Made by a program: the position numbers and the translations under genes. Of a stretch of 64,000 nucleotides of DNA, positions 8,044 to 64,000 are shown piece by piece. The notes below the pieces were generated by a model. It had not been told where the DNA came from and did no database searches. It saw only the letters and a list, made by a program, of their open reading frames with translations. This DNA is from Escherichia coli (lineage in GTDB: Bacteria; Pseudomonadota; Gammaproteobacteria; Enterobacterales; Enterobacteriaceae), in NCBI RefSeq assembly GCF_003991155.1, contig NZ_CP031293.1. One strand, 5' to 3'. Every line of letters begins with the position of its first letter. Position 1 is the first letter of the stretch.

Positions 8044-8754
8044 CTACAGATTAATGATGAGGTCTACGGCCTCAAATCGCCAATATTCAATATCTATCTG
8101 GACAATATTGCCCTGCTGGTCGGCGCGATGCTTTTCAATTAAGATCGCTGGCATACCCGCAGAACCGCCAAGATACTTGCTGATATCGCCCGGCATTCTG
8201 ACGGGTTTGAAAATCAATTTTTTTACTACCGTCTCTTTTTGGTAGCACTTTTCCCAGACTGCAGAAAATGAGTGGTTTTCAAGTTGTTCAATAAAACCCG
8301 GGGCAACTTCAGGATTAATATATGTTTCGTGATAGAAAACTTTATGTCCTTCCAGCGCCCCCCAGCCGGTGATGCGATAGAGTTCAGTTGATGGTGTCAC
8401 TGCAATCAGTGGCGCGAGCGTCTCGGGAATATCGCTGGTACGGTTTTTCTCGGTAAACCCCCAGGAAGGCTCTCGTCCTTGCTCAATTGCGGCCCGCTGA
8501 AAGCTCGCTGACAGCTCCGGACTGTAATTAAATCGCGGCTGGGTCACGAACCACCCCTTACGATCCTTACGGAAGATTTTGGATTCTGCCTCGAGGTTCA
8601 ACAACGCCTGGCGCAGCGTCATACGTTTAATGCCCAGCAGTTCTCCCAGCTCTCTTTCTGAAGGGAGTTTTCCACCCGGCGTGGTGATGCCATCTTTCAA
8701 CCACCGATCCAGTTTCTCTTTTGCATTTTCTACGGTGGATTGATTCTCCGCCAT
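8044..8754 (-). CDS. yihL: GntR-family transcriptional regulator
   Basis: 236-aa ORF with N-terminal wHTH motif (ERELGELLGIKRMTLRQAL) and C-terminal effector domain. Confidence 0.85.
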   Translation of the reverse strand: MAENQSTVENAKEKLDRWLKDGITTPGGKLPSERELGELLGIKRMTLRQALLNLEAESKIFRKDRKGWFVTQPRFNYSPELSASFQRAAIEQGREPSWGFTEKNRTSDIPETLAPLIAVTPSTELYRITGWGALEGHKVFYHETYINPEVAPGFIEQLENHSFSAVWEKCYQKETVVKKLIFKPVRMPGDISKYLGGSAGMPAILIEKHRADQQGNIVQIDIEYWRFEAVDLIINL

Positions 8755-8932
8755 TGTTTAATCCTTTTGGTTTAAACCAGATGAAGCATCTTACGCTTAC
8801 GCCAAAAAAGAAAGCAATTAACGGTGTATGACTTTGCAGATAATTGTGACAAAGCTCTCTATTGACGTAATCACAGACTTATAAGGGAGATACTCGCATT
8901 GGTGTGCGCTCACGACAGGTAAAAAAAAACCT

Positions 8933-8944
8933 GCCAGCGATGGC
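8933..8944. repeat. Target-site duplication (left copy), gccagcgatggc
   Basis: Exact 12-bp direct repeat flanking the IS at 8933-8944 and 10371-10382. Confidence 0.8.
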
Positions 8945-10370
8945 TAATGCCAGTCAGTTAAGCAACTGACTGGCTCTTTTTCGGGGCTGTGGGGTATTTC
9001 CAGGGCCTCTCCTTTACCACTCTCGGGAAGGCCCTTTCCCTTCTTGTCGGTAATTTCACAAGTTGTCCCATACTTGCAAGATCGCGCATCAGCTCCGGTA
9101 TACGTCCCGGTGAAGCGCCCTGCAATGTCATCAGCATTCTCATCACCATTCCGCATGATTCTGAGAAACTCAGTTGATTCGGCCAGTAACCTTTCAGATG
9201 TTCCGCCATTTTAATCATCTGATATCTCACCAGATTATAAGCCAGTAAGACACCCCACAGCTCTTGCTCCACAAGCTCCGGTTTTTTACTTCTCAGCGTC
9301 AGCCTGCTCAGTTGCATCGTCTGTTTTATCTCCCTGTATCCCAGTTCGATTTCCCAGCGATGACTGTACAGATCCGCCATTTCTCCTCCGGGGAAGCGCA
9401 TGGCGTCCGTCATCGACGTCAGCAGATGGCAGACTTTTCCTTTGCGCGTCACGGTCAGCAGGCGGGCTGTCACTTCATTTCCCAGTCCCGGCCACTTTTT
9501 TCGTGCCTGCGGGCTGGTTTTCAGCTTCACCAGATGATCGCCTTTACCCAGTTTTCTGATCTCTTCATATTGCGCTCCCTTTCTGAGAGGTATCATCCAG
9601 TGGCGGTGTTCTCCCGCCAGGCTCCAGGCATTTAACAGTCCCAGTGAGTAATAACCTTTATCCATTAACGTCAGAGTGTTATCGCCGGTTTGTTCTATAA
9701 GTTGCTCAGCAAGCTCATTTTCGCTGTTCTTCATCGTGCCGAAGGCTGCAGCCGTCAGCAGATGGCTGGTCAGTTCCATCTGGCAGACCATTTTGACCTG
9801 CGGGTAGAGCGCCGGGTTCCCGGCATGTGTCTGGCGGGGGAAGGCTGCATCGTTCTCTGGTGTATCCGGTGTGCGCCAGAACACACCATCGATGGCCAGC
9901 AAGGTCAGGCCGCACCAGTGCGGATGCGGCGTGGCGTTATGCCAGAGCTGCGCTGTTTTCGTGAACACGCGGCGGACAGCCTCACTTCCCAGGCGCTGGC
10001 GGGCCTGAATAACGGCACTGGGGGCAACGAAGGGGCGATTGCCCGGCAGCATGATGTCCAGGCGATTCACAATCTGGTGAAGAGGTTCTTTACGCTCAAG
10101 CGCCATGCCAACAATACACCAGACCATCATTTCGAGGGGAAGACGGCGCTTGCGTAGCGTTACAGTACCTGATTCGGCAAGGCAACGAGAGATGAGTTCG
10201 GGGTCGAGGTAATCCCCCAGAGAAGTCAGTGGGTTACGCAGAGAATCGTAACGGGATACCAGATCAAGAGCCTGTCCAATGTGCATAAAAAAATCCGGAA
10301 ACAAGTGAGCGTTTCCGGATTCTTACACAGCCACTGGATCGGTCAACTGATCCTTAACTGATCGGCATTA
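8945..10370 (-). mobile_element. IS4-type insertion sequence, 1426 bp, apparently intact
   Basis: Single long transposase ORF; imperfect terminal inverted repeats TAATGCCAGTCAGTTAAG (left) and CTTAACTGATCGGCATTA (right, i.e. TAATGCCGATCAGTTAAG in reverse complement); flanked by 12-bp direct repeat; length matches IS4 as recalled. Confidence 0.85.
8958..10286 (-). CDS. insG: IS4-family (DDE) transposase, 442 aa
   Basis: ORF 8958..10304 (track start is TTG); first ATG gives [16 protein letters not shown]...; sequence recognised as the E. coli IS4 transposase. Confidence 0.85.
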
Positions 10371-10382
10371 GCCAGCGATGGC
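10371..10382. repeat. Target-site duplication (right copy), gccagcgatggc
   Basis: Identical to 8933-8944. Confidence 0.8.
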
Positions 10383-10408
10383 AGGTTTTTTATAACTAAA
10401 AAACGAAA

Positions 10409-12232
10409 TTAATCGTCTTTCGGTGCGCGGTTGGCGCGACGACGATCGTTTTCCGTCAGGTGACGTTTACGAATACGGATAGAGGTCGGAGTCACTTCTA
10501 CCAGTTCGTCATCATCGATGAACTCCAGAGCTTGTTCCAGAGTCATGCGGATAGGCGGAACCAGAACAACGGCTTCGTCAGTACCGGAAGCACGCATGTT
10601 GGTCAGTTTCTTACCGGTCAGGCAGTTTACAGTCAGGTCGTTAGAGCGGCTGTGAATGCCGATAATCTGACCTTCGTAAACTTCTGCACCGTGACCGAGG
10701 AACAGCTTACCGCGGTCCTGCAGACCGAACAGCGCGAACGCTACCGCTTTACCCTGACCGTTAGAGATCAGTACGCCGTTCTGACGCTGACCCACTTCAC
10801 CCGGACGTACGTCGTCGTAGTGGCTGAAGGTGGAGTACAGCAGACCAGTACCGGAAGTCATGGTCATGAACTCAGAACGGAAGCCAATCAGACCACGGCT
10901 TGGGATCACGTAGTCGAGACGTACGCGGCCTTTACCGTCTGGATTCATGTTTTTCAGGTCGCCTTTACGTTCGCCCAGCGCCTGCATCACAGAACCCTGA
11001 TGCTGTTCTTCAACGTCCAGCGTCACGTTTTCATACGGCTCTTGTTTACGACCGTCGATTTCACGGAAGATTACTTTCGGACGGGATACCGCCAGTTCGA
11101 AACCTTCACGACGCATGTTTTCAATAAGAACAGACAGGTGCAGTTCGCCACGACCAGAAACGCGGAACGCATCGGCGTCTTCGGTTTCTTCTACGCGCAG
11201 CGCAACGTTGTGTACCAGTTCTTTGTTCAGACGATCCAGGATCTGACGAGACGTTACGAACTTACCTTCTTTACCGCAGAACGGCGAGGTGTTAACGCAG
11301 AAGAACATAGAAACGGTCGGCTCATCAACGGAGAGTGCCGGCAGCGCTTCAACGTTTTGCGTGTCGCAAACGGTGTCAGAAATGTTCAGTTCGCCCAGGC
11401 CCGTGATCGCCACGATATCGCCAGCTTCCGCCAGATCGGTTTCAATACGTTCCAGACCGAGGTGGCCCAGCACTTTACCGACTTTCGCGTTACGGGTTTT
11501 GCCTTCGCTATCGATGATAGTGACCTGCTGGTTCGGCTTCACTTTACCGCGCTTGATGCGGCCAATGCCGATAACGCCAACATAGCTGTTGTAATCGAGC
11601 TGAGAAATCTGCATCTGGAACGGACCGTCAAGGTCAACGTCCGGCGCAGGAACGTGGTCAACAATCGCCTGATACAGCGGGGTCATGTCTTCCGCCATAT
11701 CTTCGTGGTCCAGACCCGCGATACCGTTCAGCGCAGAAGCGTAAACGATCGGGAAGTCCAGCTGCTCGTCGGTCGCGTCGAGGTTAACGAACAGATCGAA
11801 TACCTGATCCACAACCCAATCAGGACGCGCGCCAGGGCGGTCAACTTTGTTGATAACAACAATCGGCTTCAGGCCGTAAGCAAACGCTTTTTTGGTTACG
11901 AAGCGCGTTTGCGGCATCGGGCCGTCAAATGCGTCAACCACCAGCAGCACTGAGTCTACCATGGACATTACACGTTCAACTTCACCACCGAAGTCGGCGT
12001 GCCCCGGGGTATCAACGATGTTGATACGGTAATCATTCCATTTGATAGCGGTGTTTTTCGCGAGGATGGTAATCCCACGCTCTTTCTCCAAATCGTTGGA
12101 GTCCATCACGCGCTCTTGGGTTTCGGCACGAGAGTCGAACGTACCGGATTGTTGGAGCAGCTTGTCTACCAGGGTGGTTTTACCATGGTCTACGTGCGCG
12201 ATGATGGCGATATTACGCAATTTTTCGATCAC
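10409..12232 (-). CDS. typA: Ribosome-associated translational GTPase BipA/TypA
   Basis: 607-aa ORF, N-terminal G-domain [13 protein letters not shown]-like domain architecture. Confidence 0.95.
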
Positions 12233-53010: not shown

Positions 53011-53778
53011 ATGGCAGAAACCTCTTCAACCACCGCAGGCGCACAAACGTTATTACGTGGACTGGCGGTTCTTAATGCTGTTTATAACGGCTGCCATGAC
53101 CTAAAAAGTATCGGCGAGTTCACCGGCACGACCCGGAGCACAACCCATCGTTTAGTCACCGTTCTGGTGGAACAACGCTACCTGCGCCATGTCCCAACGC
53201 AGGGCTACCAACTGGGTGCCAAACTGATCGAATTCGGTGCCAGAGCACTGGAAAGCACCTCGCTGTACGAAATTGCCCAGCCCGTTTTGCAACGCCTTGC
53301 CCGTTACACCCTGGACACCGTGCATCTGGGGATCGTTGAAGGCGACGAAGTGCTGTATCTGGAGAAGATCAACAGTCAGCGCGGGCTGGAAATGCGCTCA
53401 CGCCCAGGCCATCGCATGCCACTGGCAATCACCGGCATCGGCAAGGCATTGATCCTCAACCGAACAGAAGAAGAGTGGCGCACGCTGTTTAAGACCTGTG
53501 GTGATGAAACAAAACTGGGCGCATTTATTCAGAACATGCGTCGTTATGCCGCCAGTGGTTTTGCTTTTGATCTGGAAGAGAACGAGCCGACTATCCGTTG
53601 CGTTGCAGCGCCGGTTTACAACGCCCGGGATGAAATTGTGGCGGCTATTTCTGTCGCCAGTACCACCACGTATATGTCGCTGGCGCGTCTGGAAGAACTG
53701 GCACCTTACGTCAAATCCTGTGCAGAAGAGATATCCGCTGAACTGGGCTGGGGTAAGCACGTCCGCAAAGATAAATAA
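53011..53778 (+). CDS. IclR-family transcriptional regulator
   Basis: ORF 52924..53778; ATG at 53011 preceded by AGGAG; N-terminal wHTH (LRGLAVLNAV...) and C-terminal effector domain typical of IclR. Confidence 0.8.
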   Translation: MAETSSTTAGAQTLLRGLAVLNAVYNGCHDLKSIGEFTGTTRSTTHRLVTVLVEQRYLRHVPTQGYQLGAKLIEFGARALESTSLYEIAQPVLQRLARYTLDTVHLGIVEGDEVLYLEKINSQRGLEMRSRPGHRMPLAITGIGKALILNRTEEEWRTLFKTCGDETKLGAFIQNMRRYAASGFAFDLEENEPTIRCVAAPVYNARDEIVAAISVASTTTYMSLARLEELAPYVKSCAEEISAELGWGKHVRKDK

Positions 53779-53801
53779 ACCATGATTAAAGGAAACGACT
53801 A

Positions 53802-54806
53802 ATGCCGGGAGCACCCTCATTTATTGCCCTGGACTGGGGAACGTCATCGCTTCGGGCATGGCGTTTTGGCGAATCACCAAATCCACAAGAAAAACGTGAA
53901 TTCCCCTGGGGGATCATGAAATTACCCTCCCAGGCAGCAACACGTGAGGACGCTTTCCACGATACGTTTTTACGTGTCTGCGGCGACTGGCTGGCACAAA
54001 CCCCATGCCCGGTACTGGCTTGCGGCATGCTCGGCAGTGCGCAAGGGTGGCAACCAGCAGCTTATTTACCTTGCCCGGTCACTCTCGAGGGTCTGGCGAA
54101 GCAGTTGACGCCTGTTATCCACCAGCAGCAGACAATGCTGCACATCATTCCTGGCGTGATTAAAGAAGGTGAAATGCCCGAAGTGATGCGTGGCGAAGAG
54201 ACACAAATCTTCGGTGCTATCTCGATGGAACCGGCCCTGCAAAACGCGATCCATCAGGGTATGCCAGTGCTGATAGGCTTACCCGGCACACATGCGAAAT
54301 GGGCAGTAGTTGAAAACAACACCATTACCGATTTCCGAACCTTTATGACGGGCGAGTTATTTGATGTTTTATCCCGCCATTCGATTCTCGGTGCCACCAT
54401 GCATCCTGGAGATGAACCGCACTGGGATGCCTTCACCCACGGGCTGACAGCAGCACAAGAGCATCATCAGACCGGATTATTATCGACGCTGTTTTCGACC
54501 CGTTCGCGCCTGCTGACCAGTAATCTTACGTCGTCCTCGCAGGGGGATTACCTTTCCGGATTACTGATAGGCCATGAATTATGTGGTCTGGCATCCAGTT
54601 TGCTACGTGATTTACCCGCCACAACACCGATCGCCTTAATCGGTAGCGCAAATCTGAACAGCCGCTATTCACAAGCATTCAACCACGTTTTTCCCGACAG
54701 ACAGATACACGCCATTCCCAATGCCACTGAACAGGGATTATGGCGAATCGCCCACGCTGCCGGGTTACTGTCCACCAACGCCAGGGAATGTACCCATGCC
54801 ATTTAA
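53802..54806 (+). CDS. 2-dehydro-3-deoxygalactonokinase (DgoK)-family sugar-acid kinase
   Basis: 334-aa ORF; motifs shared with DgoK as recalled: IALDWGTS-LRAW, VMRGEETQ, PGTHAKW, DFRTFMTGEL, LSGLLIG; RBS AAAGGAAA upstream. Confidence 0.7.
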   Translation: MPGAPSFIALDWGTSSLRAWRFGESPNPQEKREFPWGIMKLPSQAATREDAFHDTFLRVCGDWLAQTPCPVLACGMLGSAQGWQPAAYLPCPVTLEGLAKQLTPVIHQQQTMLHIIPGVIKEGEMPEVMRGEETQIFGAISMEPALQNAIHQGMPVLIGLPGTHAKWAVVENNTITDFRTFMTGELFDVLSRHSILGATMHPGDEPHWDAFTHGLTAAQEHHQTGLLSTLFSTRSRLLTSNLTSSSQGDYLSGLLIGHELCGLASSLLRDLPATTPIALIGSANLNSRYSQAFNHVFPDRQIHAIPNATEQGLWRIAHAAGLLSTNARECTHAI

Positions 54807-55425
54807 TACGCTTTTGCAAAAAACCGGTTTAGTCGCCATTTTACGCGGTGTGAAACCGGATGAGATTGTCGCCATCGGTGAAAAACTGTACGCCGCCGGA
54901 TTCCGCCTGATTGAGATTCCTATGAACTCGCCGGAGGCGTTGCAAAGTATCAGTTTACTGCGCGACGCCCTGCCTAAGGACTGCCTGGTCGGAGCCGGAA
55001 CTGTGCTTTCGGTAGAGCAGGTGGTTGCGGTTAAAGAGGCTGGGGGCCAGATTATCGTGATGCCGCATTGCGATACTGCGGTGATCCGTCGCGCCCGTGC
55101 GCTGGGTATGTATTGTGCGCCTGGCGTCGCCACGCCCACCGAAGCCTTTGCTGCCATTGAACATGGTGCTAATGCCATCAAGCTGTTCCCAGCTGAACAA
55201 ATTACGCCAGAAGTTACCAAAGCCTGGCGTGCGGTTATTCCACAATCCGTTCCGATGTTACCGGTTGGCGGTATCACACCGGAAACCATGGCGCGTTATC
55301 TGAGCCACGGCGCAAACGGCTTTGGCCTCGGTTCTGCGCTATATCACCCCGGCATGACGCCAGAGCAAGTCTATGAAAATGCAGTACTGTTTATGAACGC
55401 ATGGAACAATTTAAATAGCAACTAA
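54796..55425 (+). CDS. KDPG/KDPGal (DgoA/Eda)-family class I aldolase
   Basis: ORF 54721..55425; probable start MPFNTLLQKTGLVAILRGV at 54796, overlapping the kinase 3' end by 11 nt; aldolase-family motifs (IEIPMNSP, GAGTVL, PGVATPTE, VGGITPE). Confidence 0.7.
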   Translation: MPFNTLLQKTGLVAILRGVKPDEIVAIGEKLYAAGFRLIEIPMNSPEALQSISLLRDALPKDCLVGAGTVLSVEQVVAVKEAGGQIIVMPHCDTAVIRRARALGMYCAPGVATPTEAFAAIEHGANAIKLFPAEQITPEVTKAWRAVIPQSVPMLPVGGITPETMARYLSHGANGFGLGSALYHPGMTPEQVYENAVLFMNAWNNLNSN

Positions 55426-55449
55426 CTGATAAATAAGGATATAAAAGCA

Positions 55450-56424
55450 ATGATAAAACATCTTACCTTACCGAAAAAAATGGCTGCAATGGTACTTCTT
55501 GCAGGCGCTGCCCTCAGCATTGCGCCTGTACAGGCAGCCTCCTACCCAACCAAACAGATCGAGTTAGTCGTTCCCTACGCTGCCGGAGGCGGTACGGATC
55601 TGGTTGCCCGTGCCTTTGCTGATGCCGCCAAAAACCATTTACCCGTCAGCATCGGGGTTATCAATAAACCTGGCGGAGGCGGTGCTATCGGCCTGAGTGA
55701 AATCGCCGCTGCCCGCCCTGGCGGTTACAAAATTGGTTTAGGCACAGTTGAACTGACCACCCTTCCCAGCCTCGGAATGGTGCGTTTTAAAACCAGCGAC
55801 TTTAAACCCATTGCCCGTCTGAATGCGGATCCGGCTGCTATCACAGTCCGTGCCGATGCGCCGTGGAATAGCTATGAAGAATTTATGACTTACGCCAAAG
55901 CGAATCCCGGAAAAGTACGCATTGGTAACTCAGGCACCGGAGCTATCTGGCATCTGGCGGCAGCTGCACTGGAAGACAAAACGGGCGCAAAGTTTTCTCA
56001 TGTCCCGTATGACGGCGCAGCCCCTGCCATTACAGGCCTGTTAGGCGGGCACATTGAAGCGGTTTCCGTAAGCCCAGGAGAAGTTATCAACCATGTGAAT
56101 GGCGGCAAGCTGAAGACACTGGTAGTGATGGCGGATGAGCGAATGAAAACCATGCCTGACGTCCCGACGTTAAAAGAGAAAGGCGTTGATCTCTCCATCG
56201 GCACCTGGCGCGGCCTGATTGTGTCGCAAAAAACGCCGCAGGATGTGGTGGATGTTCTGGCAAAGGCAGCAAAAGAGACGGCTGAAGAGCCTGCATTCCA
56301 GGATGCACTGCAAAAGTTGAATCTCAACTATGCATGGCTTGACGCTGCCAGCTTCCAGACCCAAATCAGCGAACAGGAAAAGTACTTTGACGAGTTGCTG
56401 ACTCGCCTGGGCCTGAAAAAATAA
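55450..56424 (+). CDS. tctC: Tripartite tricarboxylate transporter (TTT) periplasmic substrate-binding protein, TctC/Bug family
   Basis: 324-aa ORF; signal peptide; resembles TctC/Bug proteins. Confidence 0.8.
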   Translation: MIKHLTLPKKMAAMVLLAGAALSIAPVQAASYPTKQIELVVPYAAGGGTDLVARAFADAAKNHLPVSIGVINKPGGGGAIGLSEIAAARPGGYKIGLGTVELTTLPSLGMVRFKTSDFKPIARLNADPAAITVRADAPWNSYEEFMTYAKANPGKVRIGNSGTGAIWHLAAAALEDKTGAKFSHVPYDGAAPAITGLLGGHIEAVSVSPGEVINHVNGGKLKTLVVMADERMKTMPDVPTLKEKGVDLSIGTWRGLIVSQKTPQDVVDVLAKAAKETAEEPAFQDALQKLNLNYAWLDAASFQTQISEQEKYFDELLTRLGLKK

Positions 56425-56437
56425 ACCTGAGGTACGG

Positions 56438-56947
56438 TTGATGAACACAAAACAGTCTGTTGCTCAACTCGCCGTACCGCACCGCAAGCGCCTTTCATCA
56501 ACGATGGTGGTGGCGCTGTTACTTTGTGTGGTTGCTGGCGCGGTGATGATTAATGCCGCTGATTTTCCAGCAACGGCCATTGAAACGGATCCCGGTGCAA
56601 GTGCCTTCCCTACTTTCTATGCCTGCGCTCTGATTGTGCTCGCTGTCTTGCTGGTGATACGCGATCTTTTGCAGGCAAAACCAGCCTCTTGCGCCAACGC
56701 ACAGGAAAAACCGGCATTCAGGAAAACGGCAACAGGAATTGCGGCAACCGCGTTTTATATTGTGGCGATGAGCTACTGCGGTTATCTCATTACTACTCCT
56801 GTTTTCCTCATCGTCATTATGACGTTGATGGGCTACAGGCGATGGGTACTCACACCGGGTATTGCGCTGCTGTTAACGGCAATCCTCTGGTTGCTGTTTG
56901 TCGAAGCGTTACAGGTGCCATTGCCTGTCGGCACATTTTTCGAATAA
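56438..56947 (+). CDS. tctB: TTT small membrane subunit TctB
   Basis: 169-aa hydrophobic ORF between tctC and tctA. Confidence 0.7.
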   Translation: MMNTKQSVAQLAVPHRKRLSSTMVVALLLCVVAGAVMINAADFPATAIETDPGASAFPTFYACALIVLAVLLVIRDLLQAKPASCANAQEKPAFRKTATGIAATAFYIVAMSYCGYLITTPVFLIVIMTLMGYRRWVLTPGIALLLTAILWLLFVEALQVPLPVGTFFE

Positions 56948-56959
56948 CAGGGGCCAGCA

Positions 56960-58450
56960 ATGTTTGAAAGTGAACTTTTAACTCAGGGTTTTTCGACATT
57001 ACTCAATAATCCTCAGGCGCTGCTGTTTGCCACTTTTGGGGTGATGCTGGGTATTGTGATTGGCGCTTTGCCTGGTCTGACAGCGACCATGGGTGTGGCG
57101 ATTTTGCTGCCTTTCACCTACGGCATGGAGCCTGTTTCTGGCTTGTTGATGATTTGCGGCGTCTTTTTTGGTGGCGTCTACGGTGGTTCTATCACCGCAA
57201 TTTTGCTCAAAATTCCCGGAACGCCTGCCGCCGCAGCCACCGCTATTGATGGTTATGAGCTGACGAAACAGGGAAAAGCAGGGCTGGCATTGAGTGCCGC
57301 CACGTTCTCTTCCTTTAGTGGCGGAACGCTCAGCATTATCGTGCTGATGTTTCTCTCTCCGGTACTTGCCAGTTGGGCGCTGAAATTTAGTGCCTCGGAG
57401 TCCTTCGCCCTGGCAACCTTCGGACTGAGCATTATTGCCAGTATTTCCGGTGAGTCGCTGATTAAAGGGCTGATTGCCGGGGTTGGCGGATTGCTGATCG
57501 CAACGATAGGCCTTGATCCAATGGGCGGTTTTCCACGGTTTACAGGTGGATTTGTGGAGCTGATGAATGTGCCATTTATCCCGGTGATGATTGGTTTATT
57601 TGCTGCTTCAGAAGCATTCCGCTCTATGGAGCAAAACCAGCAAATTCGTCAGGGGGCGAAGGTGGCTATCGGCAGTCTGTTACTGCCCTGGCAAACACTA
57701 CGCCGCATTGCATTAACCATTTTGCGCTCATCAGGATTAGGGGTTTTTATCGGCATGATCCCCGGTGCGGGGGCGGATATTGCAGCTTTTGTTGCCTATA
57801 ACGAAACTCGTCGTTTCAGTAAGACACCAGAAAACTTTGGTAAGGGTGAAATTAAAGCTGTGGCCTCCTGTGAGGCAGGCGCGAATGGCTGCACCGGTGG
57901 CGCATTGTTACCTATGCTGACGCTGGGGATCCCTGGCGATGCGGTAACCGCCATCATGCTGGGCGCGTTAACGTTACAGGGAATGCAACCAGGCCCGCTG
58001 ATGTTTACCGACCACGGCGATATGGTTTATACACTGTTTGTCGGCATGATCTTTTGTTACTTCATGCTGCTAGTTCTTGGACTGCTCTCTTTGAAAGTCA
58101 TCGGTAACGTGGTGAAGATCCCCGGCAATATTCTCACACCGATGATCCTCGCACTTTGTGTGGTCGGGACTTATGCGTTGAACAATAGCCTGTTTGATGT
58201 TGGCATTATGCTGATTGCAGGCGTGGTGGGCTATTTCATGCAGAAAGGAGGATATCCGGCATCACCCGTAGTGCTGGCATTGATTATGGGCCCGATGGCA
58301 GAAAGTAATTTTCGCCGTGCGCTGTCGCTTTCAGGGGGTTCACTGGACTTTCTGTATACCCGACCGGTCACTCTGGCATTGCTAACTCTGGCAGCCTTTA
58401 CGCTACTGACGCCAATAATCCGCAAAATAATGCGTTTACGGCGTCAGTAA
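56960..58450 (+). CDS. tctA: TTT large permease subunit TctA
   Basis: 496-aa polytopic membrane ORF with Gly-rich TM segments. Confidence 0.8.
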   Translation: MFESELLTQGFSTLLNNPQALLFATFGVMLGIVIGALPGLTATMGVAILLPFTYGMEPVSGLLMICGVFFGGVYGGSITAILLKIPGTPAAAATAIDGYELTKQGKAGLALSAATFSSFSGGTLSIIVLMFLSPVLASWALKFSASESFALATFGLSIIASISGESLIKGLIAGVGGLLIATIGLDPMGGFPRFTGGFVELMNVPFIPVMIGLFAASEAFRSMEQNQQIRQGAKVAIGSLLLPWQTLRRIALTILRSSGLGVFIGMIPGAGADIAAFVAYNETRRFSKTPENFGKGEIKAVASCEAGANGCTGGALLPMLTLGIPGDAVTAIMLGALTLQGMQPGPLMFTDHGDMVYTLFVGMIFCYFMLLVLGLLSLKVIGNVVKIPGNILTPMILALCVVGTYALNNSLFDVGIMLIAGVVGYFMQKGGYPASPVVLALIMGPMAESNFRRALSLSGGSLDFLYTRPVTLALLTLAAFTLLTPIIRKIMRLRRQ

Positions 58451-59510: not shown

Positions 59511-60320
59511 ATGGCAACAACACAACAATCTGGATTTGCACCTGCTGCATCGCCTCTCGCTTCGACCATCGTTCAGACTCCGGACGACGCGATTGTGGCG
59601 GGCTTCACCTCTATCCCTTCACAAGGGGATAACATGCCTGCTTACCATGCCAGACCAAAGCAAAGCGATGGCCCACTGCCAGTGGTCATTGTAGTGCAGG
59701 AAATTTTTGGCGTGCATGAACATATCCGCGATATTTGTCGCCGTCTGGCGCTGGAGGGGTATCTGGCTATCGCACCTGAACTTTACTTCCGCGAAGGCGA
59801 TCCGAATGATTTTGCCGATATCCCTACGCTGCTTAGCGGTCTGGTAGCAAAAGTGCCTGACTCGCAGGTGCTGGCCGATCTCGATCATGTCGCCAGTTGG
59901 GCTTCCCGCAACGGCGGCGATGTTCATCGTTTAATGATCACCGGATTCTGCTGGGGTGGACGTATCACCTGGCTGTATGCCGCGCATAATCCACAGCTAA
60001 AAGCCGCAGTGGCGTGGTACGGCAAACTGACGGGCGATAAGTCGCTGAATTCACCGAAACAACCTGTTGATATCGCAACCGATCTTAACGCGCCGGTTCT
60101 CGGCTTATATGGCGGCCAGGATAACAGCATTCCGCAAGAGAGTGTGGAAACGATGCGCCAGGCGCTGCGGGCAGCAAACGCGAAAGCAGAGATTATCGTG
60201 TACCCGGATGCAGAGCATGCGTTCAACGCTGATTATCGCCCGAGCTATCATGCCGAATCTGCGAAAGATGGCTGGCAGCGAATGTTGGAATGGTTTACAC
60301 AGTATGGTGTTAAAAAGTAA
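59511..60320 (+). CDS. ysgA: Dienelactone hydrolase-family protein
   Basis: ORF 59445..60320; start at MATTQQSGF preceded by GGAGAA; alpha/beta hydrolase. Confidence 0.85.
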   Translation: MATTQQSGFAPAASPLASTIVQTPDDAIVAGFTSIPSQGDNMPAYHARPKQSDGPLPVVIVVQEIFGVHEHIRDICRRLALEGYLAIAPELYFREGDPNDFADIPTLLSGLVAKVPDSQVLADLDHVASWASRNGGDVHRLMITGFCWGGRITWLYAAHNPQLKAAVAWYGKLTGDKSLNSPKQPVDIATDLNAPVLGLYGGQDNSIPQESVETMRQALRAANAKAEIIVYPDAEHAFNADYRPSYHAESAKDGWQRMLEWFTQYGVKK

Positions 60321-60576
60321 CGCCATAGTCGCTAAATCTGATGATTAAGCTCACGCAATTTCAACGATTTTTTTAATCTCAAAACCATACAGCATCAAAA
60401 AATTTGTTGCTGTATGCCACTCTTTGACTCCCTTCACATTCGTCATCACACCACCTGCTGAATGCAAAAATTTCGTTGCTGTGCGGCAAACTTTTTTCCT
60501 GTTTTGTGCCGCTTTTCTCCTGAATACTCGTTCTCAGAACAACTGGATCGTTTAAACATCAGACAGGAGATTTACC

Positions 60577-61245
60577 ATGACGCAATCCATTTTTCAGGCT
60601 CAACCCTTTGAATTACCTTTTGATCCGCGCACAACTGCACTGGTCATGATCGACATGCAGCGTGACTTTGTCGAAGCAGGGGGCTTCGGTGAGGCACTGG
60701 GCAATGATGTTTCACTGGTACGCACGGCTATCGCACCATGTACAGAGGTGCTGGCAGCCGCACGTCAAAAAGGAATTATGGTTATTCATACTCGTGAAGG
60801 CCATCGTGCAGACTTAAGCGACTGCCCGCCAGCCAAACTGACGCGCGGCGGAAAAACCTTTATTGGTGAACCAGGACCGATGGGACGCATTCTGGTCAGA
60901 GGTGAAGCAGGTCATGACATCATTCCTGAACTGTACCCGGTGGCAGGCGAACCGGTGATTGATAAGCCTGGCAAAGGCGCGTTTTATCAAACCGACTTAC
61001 ATCTGATTTTGCAAAACCACGGTATCAAGACGCTGATAGTTTGTGGTGTTACAACCGAAGTTTGCGTAACCACCACCGTGCGCGAAGCAAATGATCGTGG
61101 CTATGAATGCATTATCCCGGAAGATTGTGTCGGCTCCTATTTCCCGGAATTCCAGAAATACGCCCTCGAGATGATCAAAGCACAAGGTGCCATTTTCGGT
61201 TGGGTTACTGATTCCAAAGCCATTATTGCAGGCCTGGAAGGCTAA
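60577..61245 (+). CDS. Isochorismatase-family cysteine hydrolase (amidase-like)
   Basis: 222-aa ORF; Asp in MIDMQRDF, Lys in KPGKGAF, Cys in VCGVTTEVCV: the D-K-C triad pattern of this family. Confidence 0.75.
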   Translation: MTQSIFQAQPFELPFDPRTTALVMIDMQRDFVEAGGFGEALGNDVSLVRTAIAPCTEVLAAARQKGIMVIHTREGHRADLSDCPPAKLTRGGKTFIGEPGPMGRILVRGEAGHDIIPELYPVAGEPVIDKPGKGAFYQTDLHLILQNHGIKTLIVCGVTTEVCVTTTVREANDRGYECIIPEDCVGSYFPEFQKYALEMIKAQGAIFGWVTDSKAIIAGLEG

Positions 61246-61250
61246 CACCG

Positions 61251-62111
61251 ATGGTACAGGTTACGCTTTGCGCATCGTCGTTGGGATATCTTTTCCCGCA
61301 GAATGAAACGCAAGATTTACGTCTACATAGCGCTTTTAAACATGCGGTAAATCTGTATTCAGACGCGGGAACATTCATCACTCTGTTGTGTGCGCAAACG
61401 TATCTGAATCTCCCTGATGCAGCCAGAGTCTGGCTACCTGAATGTTGGGACTGGCGAAGAGAGATTGCCCATTCAGATCCCATTCAGTTAACCCCAGGCT
61501 TACTGCGGACACCTCGATTTTGTGTGGCGCTCGAAAACGCAACGCTCTGGCAGTCGCCATTTGTGGGGGGAATGCTGACACTTGAGGCATTCCCTTTGGT
61601 TTTCCAGCACTACCCAACGATGGCATCGCAACGGCTTTTATTTTGTCTGGAACATAACGTTCAAAGCACATTGCACCTGCCGGATAGTCTCACGCACCAG
61701 GGATTAGCGATTATGGAGCATCCAGATGCGCTGGAACGCCAGGTGCCACAACTGATCGGCTTTGGTAAAGGCTTAACGCCCGATGGAGATGACTATTTGT
61801 TGGGCTATCTGGCAGCACTCTGGTTATGGCAACTCCCTGCACCACTTGCCGATCATCAATACCGGTTGCAGCAGGTAATTGATCAACATGCGCACAACAC
61901 CACGGATATCAGTCGTCATTATCTGGAGCGTGCGCTTCAGGGACATTTTTCAGAACCGATTTGCCAGTTACTCGCACAACTGGTTGGGAGTGCATCGGCA
62001 ATGACAATCGCATCCTGTGCAGAACAGGTCATGCAATTTGGCGCAACGTCAGGAGTAGATTGCCTTGCAGGAATGCTGCATGGCTTTCGAACCCTGAACA
62101 CCATAAATTGA
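61251..62111 (+). CDS. Conserved hypothetical protein, possibly DUF2877 (YahE/YlbF-like)
   Basis: 286-aa ORF starting 5 nt after the hydrolase stop; GFGKGLTPDGDDYLLGY motif; assignment by position next to the FdrA-like gene, not verified. Confidence 0.45.
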   Translation: MVQVTLCASSLGYLFPQNETQDLRLHSAFKHAVNLYSDAGTFITLLCAQTYLNLPDAARVWLPECWDWRREIAHSDPIQLTPGLLRTPRFCVALENATLWQSPFVGGMLTLEAFPLVFQHYPTMASQRLLFCLEHNVQSTLHLPDSLTHQGLAIMEHPDALERQVPQLIGFGKGLTPDGDDYLLGYLAALWLWQLPAPLADHQYRLQQVIDQHAHNTTDISRHYLERALQGHFSEPICQLLAQLVGSASAMTIASCAEQVMQFGATSGVDCLAGMLHGFRTLNTIN

Positions 62112-62205
62112 TTTCAACCTTTTCTCCCGTAGCCCGTTTATGGGGCTACACGGGGATGCTTTGCCCGAATTTTGCTATCGGGCGGAATGAAACAGGCGTA
62201 ACAGC

Positions 62206-63765
62206 ATGAAAGTTAAATATAAAGTTTTCAGTAATCTTTATCAGGACTCAGTTTCTCTGATGCAGATTTCCGCGCAAATCAGCAAGTTGCCCGGTATTCA
62301 ACAGGCCTCGGTCGTCATGGGAACACCCAATAATCTCGAGCAATTGAGCGATGCGGGTCTGGGTAACGAAATCAACGCCAGTCCCAATGATTTAGTGATT
62401 GCAGTCATGGGTGAAGAAGATATTTGCAATGAAGCACTGGTACTGGCCCAGCAACGTCTGACCAGCAAACCCGATGATGAAACGGATAGTGGCATTAAAA
62501 CACCGGAAAAGGTCAGCCTGGAAATGGCACTGGAAGCCGAGCCCGAAGCCAACCTGGCACTCATTTCTGTACCGGGAGACTACGCCGCCGCCGAAGCAAT
62601 TAAAGCGTTAAACCTCGGAATGAACGTGATGATGTTCAGCGATAACGTCAGTATCGTGCAGGAAAAATCCATCAAAACGCTTGCCCGAGAACGTCAGCGC
62701 ATCGTAATGGGACCTGACTGTGGAACCGCCATTGTTAACGGCATTCCGTTAGGCTTCGCTAATGTGGTGAAACGCGGAGCAATTGGTGTTATTGGCGCGT
62801 CAGGCACCGGGCTACAGGAAGTGACTTGCCGAATCGACCAGCTCGGAGCGGGTATTTCTCAGGCGTTGGGAACAGGCGGACATGATCTCAGTGAAGAGAT
62901 TGGTGGAATATCGATGCTCTTCGCTTTAGATGCGCTGGCGCAAGACGATGAAACTCGCGTGATTGTGCTTATTTCAAAACCGCCTTCACCGATCGTTGCC
63001 CGGACTATTCTGGAGCGTGCCGAGGCTTGTGGAAAACCCGTGGTGGTGAATTTCCTCGGTGCGAATCCGCATGATCTGGCACGTCCCAATATCACCGCGG
63101 CCACCACACTTGCCAGCGCCGCAAATATCGCCGTGGCGTTACTGAATGATCAACCACTTCCGACTATCGAGACCGAAATTTCCTGCGACGATCTCACAAT
63201 GTTACAAAACGCCTGCCAGCGCCTGCCAGCCCATCGCCAGGCGATACGCGGTGTTTTCGCCGGAGGAACCTTCTGCTACGAAGCGCAACTTATCTGCCAA
63301 CAAAAGGGATTCAGCGCAGCCTCCAATACGCCAGTTGCGGGTAATCGTGCTCTGGCAAATATCTGGCAAAGCGAAGATCACACGTTGATCGATATGGGCG
63401 ACGATGATTTCACCCGTGGCAAACCGCATCCAATGATCGACCCGACTCTGCGCAATCAACGTCTGCTCAACGAACTCAACGACTCACACACTGCCGTCGT
63501 GTTATTCGACCTGGTACTTGGTTATGGCGCTTCCACGACGCCTGCCAGCGAATTACTGGACCAACTTTCACACATCGACATGAATAACGCACCGTTGCTG
63601 ATTGCGCACGTTTGCGGAACGGAAGCTGATCCGCAAATACGCAGTCAGCAGATAAGCGCACTACAAAATGCAGGGGTCATCATCGCCAGCAGCAATGCAC
63701 AGGCGGCGTTATGGGCCAGCACCGTTGCACAGACTCAGTTGCAGAAAAAGGGGCTAAACGCATGA
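62206..63765 (+). CDS. FdrA-family protein (CoA-binding, succinyl-CoA synthetase alpha-like fold)
   Basis: 519-aa ORF; motifs recalled from FdrA: QDSVSLM, VMGTPNN, NVMMFSDNV, MGPDCGT, IGVIGASGTG, PHPMIDPTLRNQ. Confidence 0.75.
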   Translation: MKVKYKVFSNLYQDSVSLMQISAQISKLPGIQQASVVMGTPNNLEQLSDAGLGNEINASPNDLVIAVMGEEDICNEALVLAQQRLTSKPDDETDSGIKTPEKVSLEMALEAEPEANLALISVPGDYAAAEAIKALNLGMNVMMFSDNVSIVQEKSIKTLARERQRIVMGPDCGTAIVNGIPLGFANVVKRGAIGVIGASGTGLQEVTCRIDQLGAGISQALGTGGHDLSEEIGGISMLFALDALAQDDETRVIVLISKPPSPIVARTILERAEACGKPVVVNFLGANPHDLARPNITAATTLASAANIAVALLNDQPLPTIETEISCDDLTMLQNACQRLPAHRQAIRGVFAGGTFCYEAQLICQQKGFSAASNTPVAGNRALANIWQSEDHTLIDMGDDDFTRGKPHPMIDPTLRNQRLLNELNDSHTAVVLFDLVLGYGASTTPASELLDQLSHIDMNNAPLLIAHVCGTEADPQIRSQQISALQNAGVIIASSNAQAALWASTVAQTQLQKKGLNA

Positions 63766-64000
63766 ATACCTTATTTAATCAGCCTTTGAAGGTTGTGAAC
63801 GCGGGACTACACAGTTTTGCTGACAATATTCAACATGCCGGGGGAAGCGCAATTGCACTCAACTGGCAGCCACCAGCACAAGGCGATATTGACGCTGGAT
63901 TGGATCTGGCATCGTTGCTACGTCATCCCCTGGTAGAAAATGCCAACCAAATCGCCATGACACGTTATCTCGAAGCACAGCCCGTGCTGGTGGATGTCAT
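63762..64000 (+). CDS. Downstream ORF translationally coupled to the FdrA-like gene (DUF1116 YlbE/YahG-like by position), 3' end beyond window
   Basis: ATG overlaps the FdrA-like stop (ATGA); frame open to the window end (MNTLFNQPLKVVNAGLHSF...); family inferred from gene order only. Confidence 0.45.
   Translation, partial: MNTLFNQPLKVVNAGLHSFADNIQHAGGSAIALNWQPPAQGDIDAGLDLASLLRHPLVENANQIAMTRYLEAQPVLVDV

Follow-up and report, generated by a model that had tools for sequence, protein, structure and literature searches.

The window analyzed here is a 64,000-nucleotide stretch of Escherichia coli DNA (contig NZ_CP031293.1, one strand, 5′ to 3′), and our subject is the accessory gene cassette that begins near its right-hand end, between ysgA and metE, with a predicted hydrolase of the triuret hydrolase (TrtA) type as its first gene. 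The coding features of the cassette that lie within the window are as follows.

60310–64000, plus strand: left part of the accessory cassette (about 8.55 kb in full), inserted between ysgA and metE.
60577–61245, plus strand: TrtA-type cysteine amidohydrolase, 222 aa (open reading frame list; PF00857).
61251–62111, plus strand: AllH-like (DUF2877) subunit, 286 aa (PF11392).
62206–63765, plus strand: AllF/FdrA-like subunit, 519 aa, resembling succinyl-CoA synthetase alpha (NF004760).
63762–64000, plus strand: AllG-like (DUF1116/YlbE family) subunit, first 79 codons of 474 aa, starting in an ATGA overlap.

The sequence-only reading of this DNA had stated that metE follows ysgA directly in K-12, and the two genes are indeed spaced by 39 bp in MG1655 (metE end to ysgA); the cluster, whose presence in identical form in K-12 had been named as a contrary outcome, is absent from that site. 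The last K-12-homologous position is 60309 of the window (15010 of NZ_CP081881, locus L001), within the final codons of ysgA, and homology restarts at the metE stop codon (L001 23563), about 8.55 kb further on. Because the boundary of the island sits within these last codons, the 3′ end of ysgA is altered: the protein ends in ...QYGVKK* in the window and in ...QYGGKKSL* in K-12 (60300–60320), and the hairpin of the K-12 ysgA–metE spacer is replaced in the same region. The G+C content over 500-nt segments is about 0.44–0.55, with no evident shift relative to the flanks.

Since the E. coli sequence NZ_CP081881 differs from the window by 1 base over 18.7 kb, it was used as a proxy for reading beyond the window end (offset 45299). 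There the full unit consists of eight co-directional genes spanning ysgA to metE, about 8.5 kb, in the order cysteine hydrolase, AllH family, fdrA, YlbE family, arcC carbamate kinase, a 129-aa AH_C protein, permease, and LysR regulator; RefSeq labels the 129-aa product as "allophanate hydrolase-related protein" and the permease as "cytosine permease". The four-gene array described from the sequence (hydrolase, hypothetical protein, FdrA-like protein, coupled gene) is in place, the remainder of the operon does lie past the window end, and the carbamate kinase and transporter expected downstream are both there, together with the regulator. The intergenic gaps are 5, 94, −4, −8, 16, 25, and 77 nt, and it is these short gaps and overlaps among the eight genes that make the array operon-like. 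The AllG-like start at 63762 overlaps the FdrA-like stop, which points to translational coupling of the two genes before the open reading frame leaves the window, and arcC follows immediately 3′ of the AllG-like gene with an 8-nt overlap. The region 60300–64000 is matched at 100% identity in many complete E. coli chromosomes, and the array was found in 1559 of 5426 complete E. coli genomes (125 of the places are plasmid-borne); the cluster is real and conserved, not a chance arrangement.

The first gene encodes a protein with an isochorismatase-like hydrolase (IHL) domain (Pfam Isochorismatase PF00857, 7e-48, residues 20–213). Its best NCBIfam model is BiuH (NF050097, 279.8 bits, under the 370-bit cut-off), and the RutB model TIGR03614 gives 111.9 bits for a cut-off of 378. 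Among PDB entries, Herbaspirillum TrtA (6XIX/6XJ4/6XJE) came first with 271 bits, followed by BiuH of Rhizobium (6AZO, 238 bits) and of Rhodococcus (234 bits) and by RutB (105 bits); in the alignment, the protein is 58.7% identical to TrtA and 53.5% to BiuH. An amidohydrolase of N-carbamoyl or amide compounds, possibly of the RutB type, had been proposed for this gene; the first half of that proposal agrees with the ureide amidohydrolase relatives, while the RutB half does not (105 vs. 271 bits). As the closest characterized relatives are triuret and biuret hydrolases and not RutB, the substrate can probably be narrowed to triuret-type ureides. The possibility of a genuine isochorismatase in a siderophore-type context, raised as a contrary outcome, was also considered, and an EntB-type identity was rejected: the top family and PDB matches are ureide amidohydrolases, and the hydrolase has no siderophore neighbors, being surrounded by AllHFG-like, kinase, and permease genes.

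The residues of the active site are informative. TrtA uses the triad D24/K129/C162 and the substrate binders F29, E72, K132, and Q202, and the TrtA and BiuH consensus sequences differ at F35/Y, N41/Y, A134/S, E160/D, Y187/T, and I205/V (PMC7948467). The alignment places the triad of the cassette hydrolase at D26, K130, and C163 and its substrate binders at F31, E74, K133, and Q203, and all six discriminating positions are of the TrtA type (F37, N43, A135, E161, Y188, and I206). In a neighbor-joining tree calculated with no bootstrap, the protein falls inside the TrtA clade, and the hydrolases of orthologous cassettes also keep the TrtA signature. We therefore rejected a BiuH identity, both by the score of 279.8 bits for a 370-bit cut-off and by the signature residues, and a RutB identity by its low scores and by the lack of ring-opening genes in the cassette. 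From its residues and clade, the hydrolase is predicted to be a triuret hydrolase.

The next three genes and the kinase form a module related to the carbamoyltransferase AllFGH. The AllH-like protein matches Pfam AllH (PF11392, DUF2877) with 6.5e-27 over residues 168–278, which answers the proposed profile search for DUF2877, and the glycine- and aspartate-rich motif noticed earlier in the second gene is GFGKGLTPDGDD at residues 170–181 (nt 61758–61793), where the AllH domain begins; the protein has no match in NCBIfam. The AllF-like protein belongs to the FdrA subfamily NF004760 (496 bits, above the cut-off of 433), RefSeq calls the fourth gene "YlbE family protein" in identical genomes, and the kinase is a carbamate kinase by TIGR00746 (364.4 bits, above the cut-off of 358.25). 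The likeness to yahE-yahF-yahG and fdrA-ylbE-ylbF that had been noticed is borne out, the three middle genes being paralogous to both sets at 26–48% identity: the AllF-like protein is 40.5% identical to K-12 AllF and 41.7% to YahF, the AllG-like protein 48% to AllG and 46% to YahG, the AllH-like protein 33% to AllH (domain/partial) and 26% to YahE, and the kinase 38% to AllK and 48% to YahI.

The genes fdrA-ylbE-ylbF are now named allFGH and encode oxamate carbamoyltransferase, which catalyzes oxalurate + Pi <-> oxamate + carbamoyl phosphate with the catabolic carbamate kinase AllK as partner, and the authors stress that urease-negative enterics recover ureide nitrogen by this route (PMC11326118). 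In the cassette, the AllF, AllG, and AllH families are likewise encoded together with a kinase. Orthology to K-12 AllFGH is not supported, since the proteins are no closer to it than to YahFGE, form a separate lineage, and have no all genes nearby. Separate trees were drawn for AllG, AllF, and the kinase, and in each of them the genes linked to TrtA in Proteobacteria, mycobacteria, and Anaerobiospirillum make up one lineage that includes neither K-12 AllFGK nor YahFGI. The cassette module is a third paralogous set, a copy of neither allFGHK nor yahEFGI.

It is here that a second oxalurate/oxamate system has to be weighed, in which the AllHFG-like complex would be an oxamate carbamoyltransferase acting on imported oxalurate or parabanate and the hydrolase would deamidate the leftover oxamate (or an oxaluramide precursor), saving nitrogen that K-12 excretes as oxamate. 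The homology of three subunits and a kinase to AllFGH/AllK speaks for it, as do the RefSeq name "oxamate carbamoyltransferase subunit AllH family", the position of AllS as the second-best NCBIfam match of the regulator, and the treatment of such clusters as oxalurate degradation in PMC12625717. We nevertheless consider this system rather improbable: the lineage of the module stands apart from K-12 AllFGK (33–48% identity), the genes allB/C/D/E are not nearby, and the hydrolase retains all binders of the long triuret chain and falls among genes of TrtA+BiuH+AtzF loci. Most island-positive E. coli presumably also have the core allFGHK.

The 129-aa protein (L001 20853–21242, past the window end) is a free-standing AH_C domain (Pfam AH_C, 1.8e-41). 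It covers profile positions 472–595 of the 600 in the allophanate hydrolase model, aligns to residues 497–619 of PDB 4GYR, and is 100% identical to PDB 5C5Z over 129 residues. A full allophanate hydrolase (AtzF/DUR1,2) is ruled out, as the N-terminal amidase-signature domain is missing and AH_C is all there is. We take 5C5Z to be c4763 of the uropathogenic E. coli (UPEC) strain CFT073, in line with a citation in PMC7558591. The entry was deposited as "Glutamyl-tRNA amidotransferase", a name copied to many database entries; to judge from the protein, which has neither an amidase nor a GatA domain, this is a propagated misannotation. Homologues have the same taxonomic spread as the hydrolase and are always about 130 aa long.

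In Mycolicibacterium sphagni (L018 13578–15002) and Mycobacterium sp. shizuoka-1 (L016 12648–14070), the kinase and AH_C are a single open reading frame, and a third mycobacterium has them in the same frame relation. Such a fusion reads as a Rosetta-stone link between the two proteins, and because they are fused, it suggests that AH_C acts on the kinase product or on a related N-carboxy compound. AH_C was reportedly proposed by Fan and colleagues in 2013 to be a decarboxylase of N-carboxy compounds. A decarboxylase that would pull reversible steps forward is the role we favor, and it is the weakest link of the scheme given below.

The same domain has been connected with the use of urea in urine, AH_C (c4763) standing in for allophanate hydrolase in a urease-independent way. 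Its homology with the allophanate hydrolase C-domain speaks for this, and PMC7558591 cites the c4763 structure paper in that sense. That claim is based on structure similarity alone, the 129-aa protein has no amidase domain of the kind that hydrolyzes allophanate, and urea carboxylase is absent from the cassette, so we give this explanation the least credence of all.

The permease belongs to the NCS1 family and is CodB-like, far under the NCBIfam cut-off. Together with the hydrolase it has supported a Rut-like scavenging of pyrimidines, with CodB-like import and a RutB-like hydrolase that releases carbamate for the kinase (PMC12928451). The identities of 31.8% to RutB and 26.5% to CodB (PMC12928451) and the fact that the NCBIfam RutB model does match (112 bits) argue for such a route; the 112 bits face a cut-off of 378 and the far higher scores of 280 and 271 bits for BiuH and TrtA, no ring-opening gene of the RutA/RutF type and no dihydropyrimidinase gene occurs in the cassette of any host examined, and AllHFG would be left with no role. 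A pyrimidine pathway is therefore very improbable.

The regulator is of the LysR type, with PunR and then AllS as its best NCBIfam matches, both under the cut-off. Two sequence elements lie in the 256-nt leader upstream of the hydrolase gene.

60386–60416, no strand assigned: palindrome CATACAGCATCAAA-aaa-TTTGTTGCTGTATG with 14-nt arms, 93% complementary.
60465–60494, no strand assigned: weaker second copy of the motif (direct repeat D1, 77% identity over 30 nt).

The second copy lies 69 nt downstream of the first; the two form a two-copy family, for which chance is possible. The core ATCAAA-N3-5-TTTGNT is shared by the upstream regions of the hydrolase orthologues in Budvicia, Photobacterium, and Silvimonas. 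We regard 60386–60416 as the candidate operator of the cassette regulator, and since the palindrome fits a T-N11-A box, control by the linked LysR protein is likely. A riboswitch in the leader (for example, of the guanidine or other nitrogen-metabolite classes) was rejected, as no Rfam family matches it and the sole hit (E = 0.17) is irrelevant. A sigma-70 promoter scan of the plus strand gave nothing above chance, inspection by eye for sigma-54 spacing gave nothing convincing, and terminator-like hairpins at 60475–60487 and 61922–61941 are no more than chance predicts.

The cassette is conserved well beyond E. coli. Homologues of the hydrolase with 79–88% identity occur in Enterobacterales, Vibrionaceae, Shewanella, Pasteurellaceae, Burkholderiales, Neisseriales, and Xanthomonadales. 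The order IHL, AllH, AllF, AllG, carbamate kinase, AH_C, NCS1 is the same in Caballeronia, Silvimonas, and Photobacterium, although the flanking genes are unrelated; the LysR gene lies downstream of the array in Caballeronia and Silvimonas but upstream of it in Photobacterium. Budvicia and Paraburkholderia have the same seven genes in the same order (tblastn). A TrtA-type hydrolase with AllF, AllG, carbamate kinase, and AH_C is also found in three mycobacteria and in Anaerobiospirillum.

We surveyed one genome per species at no fewer than 80 loci with 61–89% hydrolase identity, which is a sample and not a census. Among the matches listed, the focal gene was closer to TrtA than to BiuH in all 80 loci and carried the TrtA signature in 78 of 80 (A134S being counted as a neutral change, PMC7948467), and at least 10 loci had AllF, AllG, or kinase genes adjoining the hydrolase: four full-cassette proteobacterial loci, three mycobacterial ones, Anaerobiospirillum, and two of Erysipelotrichaceae, one of which (L082) ends at a contig edge and shows the kinase only. 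Neither BiuH nor the AtzF amidase is present in the island or within 10 kb in the 10 cassette loci listed. Of the other 70 loci listed, about 17 have a BiuH paralogue and about 22 have an amidase resembling AtzF. In the neighbor-joining tree of the hydrolases (no bootstrap), those of E. coli, Burkholderiales, and mycobacteria are grouped as sister to genes of TrtA+BiuH(+AtzF) loci (L014, L019), and those of Anaerobiospirillum and Erysipelotrichaceae stand beside the characterized TrtA. The hydrolase thus looks alike in both contexts; it is the downstream chemistry that differs.

Several variant loci deserve mention. In Erysipelotrichaceae L080, AllH, AllF, AllG, and carbamate kinase genes lie 4 kb upstream of the TrtA-type gene, and the locus has no AH_C. 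The NCS1 permease is replaced by a membrane protein of about 505–525 aa in Anaerobiospirillum (L029 14894–16471) and in Erysipelotrichaceae (L080 8484–10004 and 10674–12191). Its N-terminus reads ...W[VW][KA]GD[IL]N[AG]FFGLF[ST]N..., searches of Pfam and NCBIfam gave no significant match for it in L029 and L080, and it may stand for a transporter family not yet described that carries the same substrate. A gene for a NicT nickel transporter (L018 16987–18234) follows the mycobacterial cassette at a distance of about 2 kb, which could reflect a link with urease or a coincidence. A metagenome-assembled genome of Verrucomicrobia (L024 10001–13765) combines TrtA, a BiuH paralogue, and a standalone AH_C that is 61% identical to the E. 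coli one; the AtzF amidase and AllFG were not detected at this locus. L024 shows that a standalone AH_C also occurs outside the AllFG-type cassette.

Triuret is carbonyldiurea, a product of urate oxidation and urea pyrolysis. Human urine contains it, peroxynitrite produces it from urate, and TrtA converts it into 1-carboxybiuret and NH3 (PMC7948467). On balance, and with moderate confidence, we read the cassette as an operon for the catabolism of a small poly-ureide, most likely triuret, with ATP gained via carbamoyl phosphate. The sequence-only reading had suggested a pathway that feeds an FdrA-type system from an N-carbamoyl or amide substrate; the gene content upholds this and narrows the substrate to the triuret type, the function itself being a prediction.

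We infer the substrate and the second to fifth steps of the scheme, including the role of AH_C, from the observed gene content, protein families, TrtA residues, conservation of the module, and lack of BiuH and AtzF. In the first step, the NCS1 permease would bring the compound into the cell, and in the second, the TrtA-type hydrolase would free one terminal amide nitrogen as NH3, leaving 1-carboxybiuret, an anionic N-carbamoyl compound that would be oxalurate-shaped. In the third, the AllH/AllF/AllG-like complex would move the terminal carbamoyl group to phosphate and give carbamoyl phosphate, first from carboxybiuret to allophanate and next, probably, from allophanate to carbamate. The carbamate kinase would then turn carbamoyl phosphate and ADP into ATP and carbamate, and the AH_C protein would accelerate the decarboxylation of carbamate-type N-carboxy intermediates and so pull the reversible steps forward; as the sixth element, the LysR protein would switch the operon on. 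Each triuret would yield 4 NH3, 3 CO2, and a maximum of 2 ATP on balance. No urea would arise, as befits urease-negative E. coli.

Oxalurate (H2N-CO-NH-CO-COO−) has close analogues in carboxybiuret (H2N-CO-NH-CO-NH-COO−) and allophanate (H2N-CO-NH-COO−). As TrtA is kept, BiuH and AtzF are missing, and AllFG and a kinase are always supplied, it is simplest to suppose that carbamoyl groups of the TrtA product are stripped off onto phosphate by the AllHFG-like complex and made into ATP by the kinase. All four nitrogens are accounted for in this way, without urea. The scheme also fits comammox contigs with trtA, which carry allFGHK and have no trtB (PMC12625717). More tentatively, and with appreciable doubt, we propose that the whole constitutes an undescribed phosphorolytic, energy-conserving poly-ureide route, with an AllFGH-class carboxybiuret/allophanate:phosphate carbamoyltransferase and with AH_C as a dedicated decarboxylase working with the kinase.

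A different ureide (biuret, formylurea, acetylurea, or another acyl-urea) might be the substrate instead, or the route might end in urea, with AH_C as a carboxybiuret decarboxylase analogous to TrtB and with the complex phosphorolyzing biuret to carbamoyl phosphate and urea. Traces of activity on formylurea and biuret are known for TrtA, and one naturally occurring BiuH is a generalist (PMC7948467); the decarboxylase role proposed for AH_C, the standalone AH_C beside TrtA and BiuH in L024, and the nickel transporter near the mycobacterial cassette can be read in the same direction. The TrtA signature, and not that of BiuH, is strictly conserved, and with the urea-ending version half the nitrogen would go to waste in E. 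coli, a species that as a rule has no urease (PMC11326118). We consider this possibility unlikely, though the least improbable of the alternatives.

It should be noted that a number of observations weigh against the triuret scheme. The catalytic role of AH_C is disputed even in allophanate hydrolase, and the scheme is not strictly in need of this protein. The hydrolase shares only 59% of its residues with the single characterized TrtA, and specificity in the family is a matter of second-shell effects, single mutations having failed to interconvert the enzymes (PMC7948467). With its half-life of about 20 min, carboxybiuret breaks down to biuret (PMC7948467), and the cassette has no BiuH to rescue the decayed product. 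The substrate range of the AllFGH family is unreadable from sequence, the K-12 enzyme being known just for oxalurate/oxamate, and the CodB-like permease (26% identity) could point to a nucleobase-like substrate. In the mycobacterial loci, AllH was not detected even at E = 1; it may lie elsewhere in the genome or be dispensable there. The Erysipelotrichaceae variant has an altered signature, E160H + Y187F (L080 at about 10001–10660, L082 at about 8584–9228), and its AllF, AllG, and kinase group with the K-12 Yah set and not with the E. coli cassette, so that its substrate specificity may differ; it may also be a clue to the function of yahEFGI. Our literature search found no experiment on a cassette gene except one crystal structure (5C5Z), and for the CFT073 locus tags it found a coarse comparative table only.

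The scheme can be compared with several known systems. The TrtA-(TrtB)-BiuH-AtzF pathway of Herbaspirillum sp. BH-1 and Rhizobium (PMC7948467) shares with the cassette its first enzyme, from the same IHL clade, and the AH_C domain. In the cassette, an AllH/F/G-type carbamoyltransferase and a carbamate kinase take the place of BiuH, TrtB, and the AtzF amidase domain, and AH_C is free-standing (129 aa; kinase-fused in mycobacteria), unlike that of AtzF in the triuret pathway. The route predicted for the cassette would be phosphorolytic and ATP-yielding, whereas the triuret pathway is purely hydrolytic.

The K-12 allFGHK system, which serves anaerobic allantoin degradation (PMC11326118, PMC9843812), has the same three-subunit architecture followed by a carbamate kinase, and the chemistry presumed to be shared would transfer the carbamoyl group of an N-acyl-urea to phosphate and then yield ATP. 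Its gene order is F-G-H-K, compared with H-F-G-K in the cassette, which has no allECD neighborhood and, unlike allFGHK, comes with a hydrolase of the TrtA type, an AH_C protein, and a permease. Because of this divergence and of the TrtA-type partner, the substrate of the cassette complex is probably carboxybiuret/allophanate and not oxalurate. The K-12 cluster yahEFG-yahI-yahJ has the same order (DUF2877, FdrA-like, DUF1116, carbamate kinase) at 26–48% identity, an adjacent LysR gene whose product YahB is 34% identical to the cassette regulator, and also a design of hydrolase, H/F/G subunits, and kinase; its hydrolase YahJ, encoded at the cluster end, belongs to the metal-dependent amidohydrolase superfamily, and the cluster has neither AH_C nor a permease.

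In comammox Nitrospira and ammonia-oxidizing archaea, trtA/biuH lie beside allFGHK, sometimes with codB, and trtB is absent where allFGHK is present (PMC12625717). These clusters keep biuH and atzF or a gatA-like amidase, and the authors see two separate pathways, for triuret and for oxalurate. In the E. coli-type cassette, biuH and the atzF/gatA-like amidase are both missing, and on this ground a functional link between TrtA and AllFGH appears forced.

The locus itself has long been in the literature. In the avian pathogenic E. coli (APEC) strain APEC O1, a "tkt1 genomic island" of 16 kb was described that separates metE from ysgA (Li et al. 2012, PMC3349570). It has a strong association with B2 strains of extraintestinal pathogens; in B2 strains, it is complete in 70% of APEC, 81% of UPEC, and 94% of neonatal meningitis E. 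coli (NMEC) (PMC3349570). APECO1_2632–2639, at the end of the ORF table of the island in that paper, are the eight cassette genes. The genome paper on BEN2908 calls the locus GR29 and speculates on pyrimidine-derived nitrogen (PMC12928451). The tkt1 island, GR29, and c4763 thus belong to the same ysgA–metE locus, the AH_C protein matching 5C5Z. In B2 extraintestinal pathogenic E. coli (ExPEC), the 16-kb island also carries tkt1, a phosphotransferase system (PTS) IIBC gene, a sugar isomerase gene, and an RpiR regulator, whereas the window strain has the 8.5-kb cassette alone, which indicates that the island is modular. Published work on the island has dealt with tkt1 and the structure of c4763, not with the cassette pathway; what we predict as new is the joining of a TrtA entry to an AllFGH/carbamate kinase exit.

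A cassette allele of about 95% identity is carried by 82 conjugative plasmids (PLSDB) of E. coli and Klebsiella. On the IncFIA/FIB/FIC plasmid pEC5931-1 (L009 7001–15179), it lies near iron ABC-transporter/iron-uptake and colicin-immunity genes. Hosts are given for 46 of the 60 plasmid records listed, and in 28 of these 46 the host is a chicken, duck, or other bird. By its positions, the cassette is a horizontally mobile and, as far as the gene set can tell, self-contained eight-gene unit. The occurrence of triuret in urine and the enrichment of the cassette in uropathogenic and avian strains make a suggestive ecological fit.

The window holds a second islet foreign to K-12 at 53011–58450, between rmuC and udp (adjacent in K-12), with genes for an IclR regulator, a 2-dehydro-3-deoxygalactonokinase-like protein, a KDPGal-aldolase-like protein, and a TctCBA tripartite tricarboxylate transporter. 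An islet of about 5 kb between rmuC and udp was mentioned as uncharacterized by Li et al. 2012 (PMC3349570).

If the triuret scheme is true, it would assign a function to a block that marks B2 ExPEC and avian ColV-type plasmids and has gone unexplained for over a decade. The recently discovered AllFGH transcarbamylase family would gain a second class of substrates, with a hint for the orphan yahEFGIJ. The triuret/biuret/cyanuric-acid branch of nitrogen metabolism would gain an alternative ending that yields ATP and forms no urea, an ending that may also operate in comammox Nitrospira and ammonia-oxidizing archaea. Bacterial fitness would be tied to a product of urate oxidation that occurs in human urine and is probably plentiful in birds, and urease-negative E. 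coli would gain four NH3 and up to two ATP from each molecule of triuret, a compound expected where urate is abundant.

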